From an uncultured Myxococcales bacterium (GTDB taxonomy: Bacteria; Myxococcota; UBA4151), in assembly GCA_964013405.1 (NCBI GenBank), contig CAXGWI010000131.1:1-10291 (forward strand): a stretch of 10,291 bases of DNA. Reading direction: 5' to 3'. Under the pieces are notes generated by a model. That model was not told where the DNA came from, searched no databases, and was given only the letters and a program-made list of their open reading frames with translations. Made by a program: the position numbers and the translations under genes. Below, piece after piece: positions 76 to 9,402 of the stretch (position 1 is its first letter; each line of letters begins with the position of its first letter).

Positions 76-1116
76 TCATCGAACCCACTCACTCACGTCT
101 TCTGGGCAGTCGACTGGGAACCCATACTCGTTCCAGCACGCAGGGCTACCGACGACTTTGCCATTTTTATACTCCACATCGAACGCTTTATGACCCCTTT
201 GCTGGTTCCAAACTGTCACTCTCCGGATTTCATCTTCAGAGTTGGAACAAATTGTCATTACGCCTTCTTTACCCTTCATCACTGAGTCAAGCGGGCAGTG
301 TCGCATCTGCGAATAGCCGTACATCAACATGCCGTACACCAAGCAAATAAACATTGCCGGTACTTGCGGCGCAACGGCCGCACTACTCCATTTAAGAATG
401 AAGGGGAGAATGACCAGCCAAGCGAAGCCCCCCATCACCGCAATGATGAGGAGCCTTTCCACATATTCCGATTCGTGTGGTCGCTCGCCAAAGGCCAACT
501 GCACCAATCTACCCCATTTTCCACCGCCATCCAGCCACCACGAGAATGCTGCAAAACTAGGCATCACGACTGACGATAGAATGACGAGCCAAAAGTGTGT
601 GGCAAGTCCGCCCGGCGAACCATGGTCGCCATGGTCATCGCCGGTCTCCGAACCCGACAGAAGGGCATCTGTTGGCTCAAATTCCCTGTGTGCATCCCCT
701 ATCTCCAGTCTCACGGTCGCCCCTGCGCCCGTGAGTTGGCTGATCGCCTCGGCTCTCACATGTGCATCCGGAGTCCAAGGCAGCACGCTGGGTGCACGAT
801 CAACGAGCTCCTTCGACGCTCTGAAACCCAAACCAAACAAGTCCTTAACGACTTTAATGACCGCAATTTTCCGAGGGCCCGCGCTGAACAACACAACTTG
901 CGCCTGACTTGGCGGCCATTCGTCCCCGTCGCTCCCGTCCGCTAGACCAGAGTCTGAGTCTCCTTCCTCGAAGGAGTCAGCTGGGTCATCCGGCTCGCCC
1001 CCATCCTCATTCGAAGCAGACAAAACCTCTTGTTTTGCGGCGCTAAACTCCTCTTGAGTCAGCACACCCTCATCGAACAGTTCCTTCAGGGCCCTCAGTT
1101 TTTCGATGTCCGGCAT
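76..1116 (-). CDS. Membrane protein with N-terminal SHOCT domain, ribosomal L7/L12 C-terminal-like domain, about 3 TM helices and a short C-terminal beta-rich region (346 aa)
   Basis: IEKLRALKELFDEGVLTQEEFSAAKQEVL matches the SHOCT pattern, followed by an acidic linker. VVLFSAGPRKIAVIKVVKDLFGLGFRASKELVDRAPSVL...AISQLTGAGATVRLE resembles the L7/L12 CTD. Three hydrophobic segments follow. GAGAGG lies upstream of the ATG. Confidence 0.85.
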   Translation of the reverse strand: MPDIEKLRALKELFDEGVLTQEEFSAAKQEVLSASNEDGGEPDDPADSFEEGDSDSGLADGSDGDEWPPSQAQVVLFSAGPRKIAVIKVVKDLFGLGFRASKELVDRAPSVLPWTPDAHVRAEAISQLTGAGATVRLEIGDAHREFEPTDALLSGSETGDDHGDHGSPGGLATHFWLVILSSVVMPSFAAFSWWLDGGGKWGRLVQLAFGERPHESEYVERLLIIAVMGGFAWLVILPFILKWSSAAVAPQVPAMFICLVYGMLMYGYSQMRHCPLDSVMKGKEGVMTICSNSEDEIRRVTVWNQQRGHKAFDVEYKNGKVVGSPACWNEYGFPVDCPEDVSEWVR

Positions 1117-2663: not shown

Positions 2664-3000
2664 ATCTTGTCTCCGCTCATCTGGGGGATGCTGCTCCCGC
2701 TGCCCCTTCCCCATGGGCGAGGCAGAGCACAACGCGCCGCCAACCAATGACCAAGCATGGAGAGACCGTAATCAGTTTCTCTCCAGACCATGGCGTCTTT
2801 TGGCCTTCCCTCCGCTATCTAACTGCCGCCTATCGATTTCGAATTTGTTAAAGAGGTTCCGCCATGCACATCTTGGTACGCACGGCTAAACGGTTCCGGA
2901 AAGTAATCACGGACTGCACGGATAAGATCGCTCTGGTTCTGAACAGACATTTATCTCTTCTCACCTATCTCTCGGTTCTTAGTTCATTCCCACTGGGCTC

Positions 3001-3136
3001 GACAAGACGCCTTGGGGTGAGAAAGCCCCACAAACCAGACCCCCACGCGCCCCTCGGAACGAAGGCTCTTCACCACGATTCGTGTGAAGGTGGGGCTTCA
3101 TTTCCCACCTTGTCTTTGCCTGAACAGGGCGGCAAA
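3001..3136 (+). promoter_or_regulatory. Hairpin-rich leader upstream of the macro-HEPN gene
   Basis: Inverted repeats at 3013-3030, 3068-3089, 3087-3111 (AAGGTGGG/CCCACCTT) and 3115-3136 (TTTGCC/GGCAAA). Confidence 0.35.
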
Positions 3137-3161
3137 CGAACGGGAGAGGACGAATGCAGAG

Positions 3162-4412
3162 ATGTCTGAGACTAAGCCATCGATTCCAGAAGGTACTCTG
3201 ATCTACACCCGTAGCATTCAGACGGCGCTCGGGCCACGGGATGTTCGTTTGTATTGGGGCAATCTCGCAAGCCTGATCCGAGAGGACGCTGTCGCCTTGG
3301 TCAGTGCCAGTGTCTTTCGGCCCGATAATATCGGGAAGGCCTGGCGCAGTCTTGCGGAGAGGTTTCCAGAGCTTGTGGGCGCCGACCAAGCCTTGAGGAA
3401 GCTCGTGACTGCCGAGCCTGAATCTGCCCTGTGGACCATGAGTGAAGATCTGCAAGCCCATTACGACCAATATCGAGATGATTTTGATCCGCCCGCGGTT
3501 TGGGTCAGTCCTGAACTCCCCGCTCGCTCCATGCGCCCCCTGCGACGGGTTTTTGTCGTCCGAAGCATCGCAAAGGAGAACTCTCCATCGGAAGAGCAGG
3601 ACTACAACAACCAACTGCGCGCTTGTTTCACCGCCATCCGAGCCCAGGAGTGTGCCGATCTCATCGAATCCCCTGAGGCGACGCCGTACCAACGTCTGGT
3701 CTTGTCTCCCTTAAGCCTTCGACAGGGTAACAAGCGCGCCGTCGTGTTGTCGGAACTCATTGCGGAAGCCTGTCGCTGGCTCAAAGCCTCGCCCCAGTGG
3801 CGTGCAGTCGACATCGCCTATTGGGATGAGAAGGACCAGGCCGAGGACCTGACGCAACTCCGGGGGGATCTCCTCCAGGAAATCGGCGATCAGCCCCTTG
3901 GCGAGCCCTCGGAAGCCTTGCATCACCTCATCAAGGACCTGCTGAACATCTGTCGGACCCTGGCTCAGGCCATTCGGGGCAAGCCAACGAAGAGTAAACG
4001 TCAATCGGCCGCTTTGTGTCTGGCCCTCGAAGACCTGGAAACCACCCTGAGCCGTCAGGATTTTACGGTGCGAGAGCTGGGCTCCTCGGGAGGTCGATTG
4101 ACGGAGGCGCTGGTGAACTGGCTGTGTGCGGAGCTCCTCAATGGCTATCAGGCCAAAGACTTTTATGACGGAATTGAGCGGCTCGGTGACCGGCGGTCCA
4201 AAAAAGGGAACCTTCGAGATCTCTGGCTCTCGAACTGGTTTCGAAGTTACCTCCATACCCTTCGTATTCTTCGCAACGTGACCGTGCACTCTCAAAGTCC
4301 CGAAGAGGGACAGTTTCCATTACAACCCGTGGAGGCCGATCTCACGGTGATGGTGGCGAGCCTGTTAAGGGTTCTAAGCCTTCAAAACCAGCTCCTTGAG
4401 CAACAAGAATAG
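3162..4412 (+). CDS. Macro-like N-terminal domain fused to C-terminal HEPN/DUF4145-like domain (about 416 aa from MSETKPS)
   Basis: The N-terminus DVRLYWGNLASLIREDAVALVSASVF resembles the first strands of a macro domain. The helical C-terminus GRLTEALV...FYDGIERL...WFRSYLHTLRILRNVTVH carries an RNxxxH HEPN motif (4272-4289). ATG at 3162 has purine-rich GGAGAGGA upstream. Confidence 0.65.
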   Translation: MSETKPSIPEGTLIYTRSIQTALGPRDVRLYWGNLASLIREDAVALVSASVFRPDNIGKAWRSLAERFPELVGADQALRKLVTAEPESALWTMSEDLQAHYDQYRDDFDPPAVWVSPELPARSMRPLRRVFVVRSIAKENSPSEEQDYNNQLRACFTAIRAQECADLIESPEATPYQRLVLSPLSLRQGNKRAVVLSELIAEACRWLKASPQWRAVDIAYWDEKDQAEDLTQLRGDLLQEIGDQPLGEPSEALHHLIKDLLNICRTLAQAIRGKPTKSKRQSAALCLALEDLETTLSRQDFTVRELGSSGGRLTEALVNWLCAELLNGYQAKDFYDGIERLGDRRSKKGNLRDLWLSNWFRSYLHTLRILRNVTVHSQSPEEGQFPLQPVEADLTVMVASLLRVLSLQNQLLEQQE

Positions 4413-4414
4413 AG

Positions 4415-4530
4415 GTGCCGCCGACGCATCGCGGCGTGGTTGTTGTGGCCCGTTATTGGCAAATGGGACGGGGCCCATGCGAGGACGGAGCGCAGGGCTC
4501 CTCATCAGCAAATCGACACCCCGACGGCAC
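4415..4530 (-). other. Structured non-coding segment between the convergent HEPN and RT genes
   Basis: 9-bp closing stem on the minus strand (GUGCCGUCG 4530-4522 with CGGCGGCAC 4423-4415, one G-U), with internal hairpins at 4447-4475 and 4487-4501. Confidence 0.35.
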
Positions 4531-4561
4531 GTCTCTCTCTAGCCAGAAGCGGGACACAAAC

Positions 4562-5830
4562 TCAATCTTCAGCTCGCGGATAGCGGCTTTCGGCGTCTTG
4601 CCGAGCTTGGTGGCGGCCCTTCTTGTGTCGCCAGGCCCAGCCGTAGGCACTTGCCACGCGGAGCTCTCCCCGTAGACCGAGATTCCACCGGGCGGTCAGC
4701 GCGGAGACAGCGTGCCGAATCCGTGTATCCACAGCCCGATAGAGCTCTAAATTCTCGCCCATAGAATAGTAGGGCAAATGCATCCCCTCTGCCCCGGACA
4801 GTTCCCGGTTGAGGTGATTCACGAGGAGCCTAAGTTTATGGCTGGCATCGGCTCGATCTTGCGCCCCTAAAATATCGCTTCGCTGGCGCCCGACCTTACT
4901 GAGGAGTCTCTGGGTCCATCCTTGAGTCTTTTCTTCAGGAATCAGCAATCTGTCGCCGTGAAAACGGAACCCTAGATAATTGAATCCCGTTGCAAATCGC
5001 CCTCGGTGGCTCTTGCTCGGCCGGAGCTCCAGGCCGGCAGCATCAAGTTGCGCACGCAATGCCTCGATGCCCTCCGACAAGCCGGCGTGGTCTCTGGCCG
5101 CAAGGAAAACATCGTCGGTATAGCGCAGGTAGAGCATGTCTTCTCTGGCTGCGAAGGCTTGATCGACGACCGACAGGAAGAGCTGGCCCAACAGTGAGGC
5201 GATGGATAGCCCCGTCGGAACACCCACCTGGCGTCGCTTGCCTTGCCCCCGACCGAAGGCCCAGGGCCGTGCTGGAGTTTCTGTGAGCAACTGCTGAATG
5301 AGCGCCAAGGCTTGGGGCTCTAGCTCGAGTCGTTGGAGCGCTTCGAAGAGCCCCTTGTGGGGAATGGATTCGTAGTACGCGTGAATGTCCGTCTTGAAGA
5401 TGTGCTCCCGACCTTGCAAGCGTCCCTCGTGAATCACGCGGCGAATCATATCTTGGGGCCGAGAAGGGGGCAGCCCGATGCCATGGGCGGCCATCTGGGC
5501 TGCGAGATGGGCGCTGAGTGCTTTCAGGACGACTTGATCTCGGAGCCGGGGAATGTAGACCAAACGCCCCCCACCCCGACGGCCCGGGGGCAAGCGACGC
5601 TCCAGCAAGGGCCCGAATCGGTACAGACCTTGAGCATCTCCGGGTTTGTAGCGGACGAGTCTTCGCTCAATTTCGTCGAGGTGAAAATCCAGTCGAGCAG
5701 CAAAATGCGCCGCCGACTGTCCATCGAGACCGACAGCTGGCCTGCGTTGCTGCGCACCTAACCGCCGTTGGTTCAGTCGCGTCCAAGCTTCCTCAAGGGC
5801 CCCACGGGAAACCCAACTCGGTTCACTCAA
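4562..5830 (-). CDS. Stand-alone reverse transcriptase (422 aa), group II-like / UG17(DRT10)-like
   Basis: RT0-like AVGLDG; RLVYIPRLRDQVVLKAL; motif A KTDIHAYYESIPH; motif B GVPTGLSIASLLGQLFL; catalytic RYTDD (YTDD 5111-5122); FNYLGFRF; thumb-like LVNHLNRELSG...YYS...YRAVDTRI. No HNH, Cas1 or RNase H fusion is visible. The TTG start overlaps the upstream TGA (TTGA). RT identity is secure; the subclass is not. Confidence 0.93.
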   Translation of the reverse strand: MSEPSWVSRGALEEAWTRLNQRRLGAQQRRPAVGLDGQSAAHFAARLDFHLDEIERRLVRYKPGDAQGLYRFGPLLERRLPPGRRGGGRLVYIPRLRDQVVLKALSAHLAAQMAAHGIGLPPSRPQDMIRRVIHEGRLQGREHIFKTDIHAYYESIPHKGLFEALQRLELEPQALALIQQLLTETPARPWAFGRGQGKRRQVGVPTGLSIASLLGQLFLSVVDQAFAAREDMLYLRYTDDVFLAARDHAGLSEGIEALRAQLDAAGLELRPSKSHRGRFATGFNYLGFRFHGDRLLIPEEKTQGWTQRLLSKVGRQRSDILGAQDRADASHKLRLLVNHLNRELSGAEGMHLPYYSMGENLELYRAVDTRIRHAVSALTARWNLGLRGELRVASAYGWAWRHKKGRHQARQDAESRYPRAED

Positions 5831-6030
5831 GAGTCTGCGTCTACCTCGCCTTCGGCTTCCACAGGCTCGGGCTTCGGTGGCGGATTACTGACAAAATCAG
5901 CGAGCATTCTCGAGAGCTCCATGGCCTCGTCCTGACTGAGGCGCCAGGAGTGCTTACCGATGGACAACAAGACCCGATCTCGCTTTTCGTCCCGAGGCCG
6001 ATCTTCGATGGGATGAGAGACTGTAATCAT
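5827..6030 (-). CDS. Small hypothetical protein (67 aa, MITVSHPIEDRP...), RT-coupled accessory candidate
   Basis: GGAGG Shine-Dalgarno (6035-6039) sits before the ATG at 6030, and the stop overlaps the RT start codon. The sequence suggests a strand-strand-helix pattern (RVLLSIGKHSWRLSQDEAMELSRMLADFV) with an acidic/Pro tail and no TM segment. Confidence 0.75.
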   Translation of the reverse strand: MITVSHPIEDRPRDEKRDRVLLSIGKHSWRLSQDEAMELSRMLADFVSNPPPKPEPVEAEGEVDADS

Positions 6031-6034
6031 ATCG

Positions 6035-6039
6035 CCTCC
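6035..6039 (-). promoter_or_regulatory. Ribosome-binding site of the small ORF-RT operon
   Basis: GGAGG on the minus strand, 4 nt upstream of ATG 6030. Confidence 0.7.
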
Positions 6040-6047
6040 ATTGCATT

Positions 6048-6262
6048 GCGCCCTTGCTCGTGCACCGAGCTTTCCAAGCACCGCTTATCCCGACCTGCTG
6101 AATCTGGACAAGGGGATCTGATGGATGGTGGCTGGTGGGGCTCAACGATCGGGTCCTACCCACTGCTGATGACGCTCTAGAGCGCAAGTGCCCTTGGGTT
6201 GTGGGCAAACACGAGAGAGGCCGCGAGCATGACCTCGCCAGCGCTCCAGACACGAGGGGCGC
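6048..6262 (-). ncRNA. Putative structured RT-associated non-coding RNA
   Basis: A 12-bp closing stem (GCGCCC-ttg-CTCGTG 6048-6062 with CACGAGGGGCGC 6251-6262) encloses tandem short hairpins at 6087-6117, 6135-6163, 6173-6184, 6189-6207 and 6217-6236. It lies directly upstream of the RT operon. Confidence 0.4.
6101..6115 (+). repeat. Intergenic repeat copy 2 (AATCTGGACAAGGGG)
   Basis: 14/15 identical to 1172-1186. Confidence 0.55.
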
Positions 6263-6393
6263 CGCCGTCTCAAGCGCCAACGCAAAACTTGCCCCAGACA
6301 ACATGACTCGATTTTTGCCCATTTTTAGTTGCTACAAACCGGGTTCTGGATTCACGGATTGCGATGGTTCGCGTTCCCTTCTAGCTTAAGGCC

Positions 6394-7152
6394 ATGAACA
6401 CACTGGCGATTTTGGCAATTCTGAGCGCCGGACCTGTGCCGCCCACGGACAGCACGGGGCTTGCGATGCTGGGCGTGAAGGGCTCCCATGGGGTGAAGCC
6501 TAGTTTGGCCCAGCTGCTGGACGAAGCCCTTTTGGTGAGCCTGAAGACATCTGGTGTTTTTAGTTCCGTGCTGGGGGCTTCCGATATCGCCCAGATCCTC
6601 GACCTTGAGGAGCAGAAGAGTATCACGGGCTGTGAGGAAGACTCGTGCCTTGCTGAGGCCGGGGGAGCCCTGGGTGTCCCATTCCTTGGTTCATGCACCG
6701 TGGGGAAACTGGGCACCCGTTACTTAGTCACGTTCAAGGTGATTCGCAGCGATGAAGCCAAAGTGGTGTCTCGAGCCATGCGCCAGGTGGACGACGAGGG
6801 GGGCTTGATCGACGCCGTGACGGCCTTGGTCAACGAGGTGAGTAAGGATGTCAAAGCGGCGATCGAAGCAGAGCGAGAGGTCCCGGAAATTGGTCAAGAC
6901 CAGGTCTCAAGGCGGAGCAAGAGCCCCCTTGCGAAGATGAGTCTCGGGCTTGCCGGGCTGGGCGCTTTGCTTGCCGGAGTCGGCGCGTATGTCCAGATGG
7001 ACGCCCAATCGACCTTCGACCTGGCCAAGTCGGACGGGGTGACGCTTCAGGAAGTCGACCAGATCGAGGGGGGCTTCCAAATGGGGCACCGTCTGGTCGG
7101 TGGAGGCGCTGGTCTGCTGGTGCTCGGGCTGCTTGGCGGGCTCTTCTTATGA
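6394..7152 (+). CDS. Exported protein with TolB_N/CsgG-like (DUF2380-like) domain and C-terminal Gly-rich hydrophobic segments (252 aa)
   Basis: Signal-like N-terminus. GCEEDSCLAEAGGALGV...CTVGKLGTRYLVTFKVI is typical of myxobacterial surface proteins. Two Gly/Leu-rich C-terminal hydrophobic stretches. ATGA overlap with the next gene. Confidence 0.75.
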   Translation: MNTLAILAILSAGPVPPTDSTGLAMLGVKGSHGVKPSLAQLLDEALLVSLKTSGVFSSVLGASDIAQILDLEEQKSITGCEEDSCLAEAGGALGVPFLGSCTVGKLGTRYLVTFKVIRSDEAKVVSRAMRQVDDEGGLIDAVTALVNEVSKDVKAAIEAEREVPEIGQDQVSRRSKSPLAKMSLGLAGLGALLAGVGAYVQMDAQSTFDLAKSDGVTLQEVDQIEGGFQMGHRLVGGGAGLLVLGLLGGLFL

Positions 7153-8613: not shown

Positions 8614-8725
8614 GGCTTTGCTGCCTCGTTTAAAACTCAGTGAAGCTAAGTTTGCTTACTATCGCGGAACTAACCAAGGTCTGCACGACAGCTTACAACT
8701 GGAAAACGAAAGGATCCATGTAGCG

Positions 8726-9402
8726 ATGATCAAGCGATTTGTATGGGTGATGTCCGTTTTGTTCTTCGTACCCATTTCAGCCGACGCGATGGATGCGACG
8801 ACACTAAAAACTGGAGTAACCGAACATGAGGTAACTTTGGGGACGACCCACCCGGTTGGCAAAGAGGGAGTTGGTATTGAATGGCCAGATGGGAAAATCC
8901 GACCTGGAATGAGATGTCCCCCAATTTTGGGTATCGCTTTCGGCGCGGCCTGACTGACCGTTTGGATGCCACGTTGCACTTAAACTATCTTCAAACGCTA
9001 GGTTCGGTTGACCTACGTTTGGCCGGCCAACTGCTGGGCGGCGGCTCGACTTCGGGGCTTTCCATAAAACTCGAAACGGGTTTGGAGGTTAATTTGCTCC
9101 TTAATGACGATACTTCGATCCCTCTGCAGTTGAGTGCGGGACTTCCCTTGGGTCAGAAGCAAATCGGGGTGGTTATGGGGGTTCGGGCTTTCAAGAACTT
9201 CTGGGTGAACGATGACTCCCCCTTTCTTTTGACACCGAACTTTGGAATCGGCGCCCGCATGCCTTGGGGCAGGCGAAAGCTATCGCTACGGCTGAGTTAC
9301 ATCCAATCACTAACCCCACCCGACGGTGAGCCTGGTGTCGAGCAAGAACTCGTGGACAACATAGCTGGACTTCTCTTTACGGAGTTTGGCGTGGCGTTTT
9401 AA
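8726..9402 (+). pseudogene. Frameshifted gene for a secreted, probably outer-membrane beta-barrel, protein
   Basis: The signal peptide MIKRFVWVMSVLFFVPISADA (from ATG 8726) is in one frame. The amphipathic beta-strand region ending FGVAF-stop is in the -1 frame (8881-9402). The switch must lie between 8881 and 8950. It may be a sequencing indel rather than a true pseudogene. Confidence 0.65.

Follow-up and report, generated by a model that had tools for sequence, protein, structure and literature searches.

The window analysed here is a stretch of 10,291 nucleotides (nt) from an uncultured Myxococcales bacterium (contig CAXGWI010000131.1). It carries on its minus strand a compact unit of about 1.7 kb, comprised of a small protein gene, a stand-alone reverse transcriptase (RT) gene and, downstream of the latter, a candidate non-coding RNA (ncRNA) with defined boundaries. 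The same trio recurs in distant bacteria with the RT gene between the other two parts, and we have hardly any doubt that it is a real unit. It is a conserved and apparently undescribed variant of the Class 2 RT–ncRNA systems. An initial annotation of this DNA had proposed a three-part unit of a structured leader, the small protein and the RT. The small protein and the RT proved to be conserved, while the RNA is the element downstream of the RT and not the upstream leader.

The RT frame is intact from its TTG start, with the GLDG, IPRLRDQ and YTDD motifs all present, and matches Pfam RVT_1 at 78 bits. As the initial annotation had stated, the gene is an intact RT with the GLDG and IPRLRD motifs, and its start overlaps the stop of the small open reading frame (ORF): the latter starts at ATG 6030, and its TGA shares the TTGA at 5830-5827 with the RT start codon. 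This TTG start is supported, since the alignments of RT relatives begin at residue 1-8 of the window RT; the gene call of the source collection starts at residue 80. There is one copy of the RT in its own genome.

The best PADLOC model for the window RT is RT_UG17 (170 bits, runner-up 111 bits), in line with the earlier remark that the protein recalls UG17 and below the range of canonical members. Its E-value on this model is 1.4e-50, versus 1e-122 to 1e-145 in canonical members, and it misses the UG17 threshold of E < 1e-100 (Sanchez-Nieto 2026), the model used here being that of PADLOC and not the authors' own hidden Markov model (HMM). The RT scores far under the cut-offs for group II maturases (TIGR04416, 101 bits vs 300), retron RTs (29 bits vs 235) and Drt2, Drt3a and Drt5; the PADLOC scores for Drt9 and Drt3a are 49 and 82 bits. 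An Rfam search of the window yielded zero matches and hence no intron or retron RNA, and no long repeats suggestive of a CRISPR array or of template and variable repeats were seen in 2700-6500, as noted initially.

Related loci (L numbers below) were retrieved with a clade motif, which gave 35 of them, 28 from metagenomes and seven from genomes, forming 21 groups at 80% RT identity; the named records are Verrucomicrobiota and Bacteroidota. Word-index searches returned only three RTs, all distant, and nothing homologous to the 67-aa small protein, and the leads from ESM Atlas were all below 0.8. In viral contigs, one pattern found 17 distant RT loci and the clade pattern found none; in plasmids, the RT had no match at E 1e-25. 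Four of 60 related genomes had matches at E <= 1e-30, in ORFs that by eye resemble group II intron RTs.

An unindexed phmmer search with the window RT produced 150 proteins. In a FastTree phylogeny of 140 rows, from which rows outside 290-520 aa were excluded, a 28-row clade including the window RT stood apart from 93 canonical UG17-like rows. With 30 chosen rows in IQ-TREE, the support was 97/96 for the clade, 100/100 for UG17 and 100/99 for the two joined, relative to group II-like and UG26-like rows, and the topology with the window RT forced into UG17 was rejected (p-AU 0.002). Among the families in the tree, the clade of the window RT is sister to canonical UG17/DRT10 and not inside it. 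The initial annotation had named nesting within group II maturases or a described family as evidence against a separate system; neither group II maturases nor canonical UG17 enclosed the RT in our tree. The RT_UG17 scores, obtained for 28 matches, were 407-482 bits in four canonical proteins and 89-187 bits in single-RT clade members. The catalytic YxDD or FxDD is intact in all 26 clade proteins examined. Two further proteins, P0027 and P0029 (854-858 aa), contain two complete tandem RT domains; their best model is UG26, their halves group together in the tree, and they may represent a two-RT complex in a single chain.

In DRT10, the primer is a Ser or Tyr at the C-terminus of the RT (PMC12632851, 10.64898/2026.06.29.735271). 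The terminal residue is Ser or Tyr in 76 of 87 UG17 rows versus 3 of 26 clade proteins. The C-terminal extension is mostly deleted from the clade rows of the alignment, and the window RT lacks a primer tail of this kind. The subclade of the window RT retains a short helix that ends in a conserved Phe (Tyr in the window); the other subclade stops before this helix. The C-terminal Ser of the small protein was considered as a primer in trans and rejected, as its relatives have no conserved terminal Ser/Tyr.

These data bear on whether the clade is simply a fourth DRT10 subtype, in which repeats are primed from the RT's own residue and the small protein and the neighbours are accessory. UG17 is indeed the best HMM, and the window RT carries a Tyr five residues from its end. 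Moreover, in Table S1 of Tang et al. at least one clade member, the Flavobacterium chungnamense RT of L055, is listed as UG17 (SLATT 0, ncRNA 0), and UG17 loci in the RT-SLATT order also have an RNA after the RT (10.64898/2026.04.29.721553). Still, we consider this explanation unlikely: the primer tail is missing, the window Tyr occupies the Phe position of the family, the clade and UG17 are reciprocally monophyletic, the small gene is retained in most loci (see below), and SLATT, essential in DRT10, was not found.

The RNA element, 96-112 nt long, is present 3' of the RT stop in all 27 loci having at least 100 nt of downstream DNA, and in 14 of these it begins within the RT ORF. It consists, in this order, of a basal stem of 9-15 bp, hairpin M1, loop A with an invariant CGC, a central stem, hairpin M2, which repeats M1, and loop B. 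A first RNA model, built from six sequences, matched 17 loci on the sense strand; a second one matched 20 of the 27 loci, the remaining seven being placed only by a script using motifs and the stem. In a model-fitted alignment, two-sided changes occur at all 12 pairs of the basal stem and 97% of cells are paired, which none of 500 shuffles equalled; slid controls were only 30-59% paired. The G-U pairs of the basal stems favour the RT-sense strand. Between loops A and B, pairing over three or four bases is possible and shows covariation (24/25 and 23/25 relatives), the p-values being too strong due to kinship. Loop A contains GCGC in 22 of 26 loci. The elements of five relatives fold at z from -1.9 to -2.8. 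In L055 (3929-5200), which comes from a cultured strain of F. chungnamense, the RT is accompanied by the RNA, with a compensatory change in the loop A–loop B pairing.

Both RNA models, built without the window, rank 4427-4526 on the RT strand as the top match in the window (E 0.022 and 0.12). Because its position, strand and motifs agree with those of the family, the element at 4415-4530 is very likely the family RNA. A compound RNA pattern has a single match in 3.9 Mb, at the window element; this pattern was written after seeing that sequence and is not independent.

The element could also act in cis between convergent genes, as a terminator or a stabilising structure, with the RT template located elsewhere or lacking. 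T-rich tracts follow the basal stem in many loci, the next gene is often convergent, and loops A and B are able to pair. On the other hand, terminators need no inner motifs of this kind, and here the two 13-nt hairpin copies and the invariant CGC have persisted in Bacteroidota, in Verrucomicrobiota and in the window despite the changing neighbour. Hence, we regard this function as quite improbable.

The initial annotation placed the RNA in a hairpin-dense, structured leader upstream of the small gene. This leader (6031-6393, 363 nt) folds at the level of shuffled sequences, with a minimum free energy (MFE) z-score of +0.21 and 56 of 100 shuffles folding equally well; six 110-nt sub-windows had z from -1.34 to +0.83. 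Nor is it conserved, the best nhmmer match among the 35 related loci having E 1.1. In 8 of 23 relatives there is no space for a leader, because a further gene stops no more than 6 nt from the ATG of the small gene or overlaps with it, and the family hairpin was found upstream in one of 24 loci, which is not the window. That the leader is the template RNA is scarcely credible, even if local hairpins can be drawn in it and the RNA of canonical SLATT-RT DRT10 loci lies upstream; the folding, conservation and Rfam results led us to reject it as the RNA of the system. Most simply, the leader would be a promoter region shared with the divergent gene at 6394; a search for a sigma-70-like site in it found none. 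A by-eye resemblance of the leader to a decayed Prim-Pol gene was also rejected (E about 14, no Pfam match).

The small gene was kept, unlike the leader, by the homologues: an HMM made from 21 relatives, the window excluded, detects it in 29 of the 31 loci whose upstream DNA is available, directly before the RT in 28 and across an inserted Prim-Pol gene in L045. It was not detected in L055, and L048 is doubtful, with two ORFs that by eye look like single repeats (HMM E 0.27 and 0.78); four loci have no upstream DNA. The 67-aa ORF of the window is matched at E 2e-6 over HMM positions 55-97 of 101 and is the sole match in its own genome. Its relatives are 97-113 aa long (158 aa with a GYF_2 tail), have invariant R, W and E, and contain a weak internal repeat (hhalign 53%, E 1e-4). 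The protein is not an orphan, being one repeat of this two-repeat family; a one-repeat form also exists in L045. The description of a tiny soluble partner with a strong GGAGG and without a transmembrane (TM) helix held, as no TM segment was seen in the 67-aa protein and the GGAGG was confirmed before its ATG. In L028, L034 and L054, the small protein is fused to a C-terminal GYF_2 domain, and the adjoining NACHT-TPR and LRR genes carry GYF_2 too.

For the fold of the small protein, we used the AlphaFold model of the L030 member, with a predicted local distance difference test score (pLDDT) of 81. Its best six matches out of 48,161 chains were Pur-alpha, the cyanobacterial DUF proteins 2it9 and 2nvn, MRP1/2, Why2 and PBF-2 (Z 6.9-5.2, root-mean-square deviation 3.0-3.6, 90-97 residues aligned), all of which we take to share the Whirly/PUR single-strand-binding fold. 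The model modestly predicts a fold of this type for the family, and the proteins may bind single-stranded DNA (ssDNA) or RNA; the one-repeat protein of the window would then have to dimerise. A predicted complex of the L030 RT and small protein scored 0.00, in a run without controls.

Table 1. Features of the unit and its convergent neighbour in the window
Feature	Position	Strand	Basis
Reverse transcriptase with YTDD, 422 aa; from the sister clade of UG17/DRT10; primer tail with C-terminal Ser/Tyr lacking	4562..5830	-	ORF translation, profile searches, tree
Small protein, 67 aa, corresponding to a single repeat of the conserved two-repeat family; Whirly/PUR-type fold predicted; its stop codon overlaps the RT start	5827..6030	-	family HMM, structure model
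GGAGG ribosome-binding site, 4 nt before the ATG of the small ORF	6035..6039	-	sequence
Candidate ncRNA, 116 nt, 32 nt after the RT stop, basal stem of 9-10 bp; divergent family member	4415..4530	-	RNA model matches, stem, motifs
Hairpin M1, 3-bp stem, 7-nt loop; one pair that is C-G in the family is U-A in this copy	4497..4509	-	model match, motif
UGCGC of loop A, including the family's invariant CGC; candidate template	4490..4494	-	motif
Central stem-loop, putative pseudo-symmetric counterpart of the basal stem	4463..4478	-	fold
Hairpin M2, in which the conserved hairpin recurs	4448..4460	-	model match, motif
Loop B, C/A-rich; second candidate template	4438..4447	-	model match
Convergent gene, probably starting at ATG 3162; macrodomain fold and HEPN/DUF4145-like domain with RNxxxH; candidate effector	3084..4412	+	profiles, structure model

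The convergent gene next to the RNA was overlooked in the initial annotation. Apart from the window, 14 of 27 loci have a homologue at this place, one of them a contig-end fragment. In its structure model (pLDDT 68), the macrodomain is matched at Foldseek E 4e-5 and Z 12.3, and the helical-bundle matches of the other domain include Roquin ROQ (Z 11.6) and AF0298 HEPN (Z 9.2). The RNxxxH motif is found in the window gene and in three relatives, while others carry S or G for R; DUF4145 was detected in two of three relatives scanned, in one of them above the cut-off. At the remaining loci, the position is occupied by SbcC, by unrelated genes or by an unannotated gene of ∼800 aa. The last of these replaces the macrodomain–HEPN gene in L025 (2039-4582), L029, L030 and L033 and yielded no Pfam or PADLOC matches.

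In agreement with the initial annotation, no SLATT-type TM partner was found among the window ORFs, nor was a SLATT-sized multi-TM ORF seen beside the 35 clade RTs; canonical loci L008 and L010 do have SLATT_5. This absence rests on the window and RT-adjoining ORFs, as the two-sequence SLATT HMM was weak and the genome-wide search had no positive control.

Archaeo-eukaryotic primase (AEP) genes adjoin 14 of the 35 loci, seven being Prim-Pol and seven BT4734-like; no match was found in the window's own genome. Stand-alone Prim-Pol genes lie immediately upstream on the same strand in L041 (3076-3669), L047 (2266-2880), L051, L052 and L056, and divergent ones occur in L045 (457-1191, between the small gene and the RT) and L048 (1465-2226). 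In L036 (5274-5858) and six other loci, the end of a BT4734-like primase gene, matching PADLOC RTasVirE-PriCT2, enters the basal stem of the RNA from the opposite strand and is followed by a HEPN-like gene and usually then by a PD-(D/E)XK gene. Further neighbours across the loci include NACHT-TPR, DruE, PDC-S22 and PD-(D/E)XK genes, which may point to defence islands. L059 (5500-9087) has vWA and tubulin-like genes downstream, a pair reminiscent of ternary conflict systems. L053 and L054 are two distinct members of the system in one Opitutales assembly.

The primases also enter into a reading of the unit as a minimal selfish retroelement, with an ORF for a nucleic-acid chaperone, an RT and a 3' structure recognised by the RT for copying of the element's own mRNA, and with primases for second-strand synthesis. 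Its layout of ORF1, ORF2 and a 3' structure, the overlap of the RNA with the RT stop in about half of the loci, the adjoining AEP genes and the patchy distribution would all fit. Nevertheless, the single copy and the lack of a primase match in the window's own genome, the absence of an endonuclease or integrase from the unit and of long flanking repeats, and the retention of one convergent neighbour family across phyla make such an element highly improbable.

Elsewhere in the window, 1269-2747 on the minus strand encodes a 492-aa protein that has a weak CorA-like PADLOC match (E 3e-4) and carries a TM region at its C-terminus; its gene is divergent from the macrodomain–HEPN gene. In nine related loci, similar-sized genes with two TM segments precede the small gene; the window gene was rejected as their homolog, as there was no profile match. 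The 346-aa product of 76-1116 (minus strand) combines SHOCT, a ribosomal L7/L12 C-terminal-like domain and a hydrophobic C-terminal part. At 8618-9402 on the plus strand, ORFs 8618-8953 and 8881-9402 overlap in different frames and may be one frameshifted gene.

By analogy with DRT10, we lean slightly towards the unit being an RT–RNA complex that would make repetitive ssDNA for anti-phage defence, with an ssDNA-binding partner replacing SLATT. The RT probably binds and copies the downstream RNA, and a role in anti-phage defence seems a reasonable expectation. The RNA would likely be the 3' end of the RT transcript. As in DRT10, two RTs may bind the equivalent hairpins M1 and M2, with a short loop serving as the template for repeated copying. 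The Whirly-type protein, in the window as a homodimer of one-repeat chains, would take the place of SLATT by binding the ssDNA product or the RNA and relaying or buffering the signal. Priming would differ from that of DRT10 and could be provided by an internal residue, by the partner or, where adjacent, by the AEP primase. Output via the exchangeable neighbour, here the macrodomain and HEPN-like protein, is conceivable, and we would not count on it. A telomerase-like RT–RNA system, with no C-terminal self-priming, a GCGC loop giving dG-dC repeats, and a Whirly/PUR reader gating a swappable cytoplasmic effector (here a macrodomain–HEPN ribonuclease), appears doubtful; that the invariant (G)CGC of loop A templates self-complementary dG-dC repeats is to be doubted at least as much. 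If true, the telomerase-like scheme would be a primer-independent or trans-primed branch beside DRT10, informative on the origin of telomerase-type priming.

A number of observations weigh against the DRT10-like interpretation and its components. The window RNA is marginal by model score, with the E-values given above, and was not reported at E <= 0.05 in a search of 41 sources. It folds at z -1.26, its family-like inner fold (stem extension not included) reaches -27.8 kcal/mol, well short of the MFE of -48.4, and it lacks the 3-bp pairing between loops A and B typical of its relatives. That pairing would in any case need to open before templating. The basal-stem covariation is inflated, as alignment A10 was fitted to the structure; RNAalifold on a MAFFT alignment yielded just five pairs, the basal stem being out of register there. 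As to the template, an A-B-A' arrangement in loop B occurs in 11 of 26 loci versus a shuffled mean of 12.5, that is, with no enrichment, and the signal in loop A amounts to the conserved GCGC alone. The structural matches of the small protein lie below the caution line of Z 8, and Foldseek names the same group at a best E of 0.014, which is not significant. The convergent gene is present at only part of the loci and lies on the strand opposite to the RT. Finally, the 35 loci form only 15 groups at 60% identity, and the tree contains no DRT2, DRT3 or DRT9 RTs, the term "sister" being valid only among the included families.

Some of these features could mean that the family is functional and the window copy is decaying, with half a small protein, a divergent RNA and no primase. 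The single repeat, the marginal RNA score and the missing loop A–loop B pairing are consistent with this. However, the RT frame is open with YTDD, the ribosome-binding site and the translational overlap are retained, the U-A pair in M1 is compensatory, and L045 is likewise one-repeat. Decay of the window copy is, in our opinion, very unlikely.

The initial annotation did not recognise the architecture, and our literature search, which covered sources other than subscription journals and bioRxiv supplements, found no description of it, the UG17 listing by Tang et al. notwithstanding. The E < 1e-100 filter of Sanchez-Nieto et al. would probably exclude the clade. Like group II intron RTs/maturases, the window RT has the RT0-7 core, but it lies under the maturase cut-off, has no intron RNA and is separate in the tree. 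Type VI retrons reportedly combine a small protein, a helix-turn-helix protein and an RT. Similar to these, our unit has an RT with a small-protein gene and an RNA; it differs in its low retron score, in having no helix-turn-helix gene and in the lack of an Rfam retron match. The UG39 RTs with a VirE/PriCT-2 primase (PMC9226505) resemble the clade loci in having AEP primase neighbours; however, RT_UG39 is not among the 25 best PADLOC models of the window RT, and the primase is optional in the clade and absent here. In 10.64898/2026.06.29.735271, DRT9 (UG28) and DRT3a (UG3) are described as Class 2 RTs whose template is a short loop flanked by two stem-loops. A conserved short loop motif between anchoring stems, here a candidate template, is shared with them, while the HMM scores are much lower, the motif and the partners differ, and there is no second RT.

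The nearest RT family is that of DRT10/UG17, with which we compared the unit on the basis of PMC12632851, 10.64898/2026.04.29.721553, 10.64898/2026.06.29.735271 and 10.64898/2026.10.08.757509. Both have a stand-alone RT of ∼420 aa and a small partner gene overlapping the RT start. The DRT10 RNA is pseudo-symmetric and bound by two RTs (10.64898/2026.06.29.735271), and an RNA with a basal stem and a pseudo-symmetric two-loop layout is seen here at the family level, the window copy being marginal by score; this comparison is by layout, not by sequence. In UG17 loci of the RT-SLATT order, the RNA precedes SLATT (10.64898/2026.04.29.721553), so that it lies between RT and SLATT and the downstream position alone is not new. 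Unlike DRT10, the RTs here form a separate clade without the C-terminal extension bearing the priming Ser/Tyr, SLATT was not found, and the partner is a soluble, predicted Whirly-type protein. The RNA, of ∼100 nt versus 137-143 in DRT10, abuts or overlaps the RT stop and has conserved motifs of its own. By analogy, the system would likely work as DRT10 does, though it fails three DRT10-defining features. DRT10 is the bacterial RT system mechanistically most like telomerase. Its sister clade retains the RNA layout, has lost both SLATT and the residue used for priming, and has acquired a soluble partner whose predicted fold is of a single-strand-binding type. It would thus offer a natural experiment on how the complementary DNA signals to the effector and on how the priming evolved.

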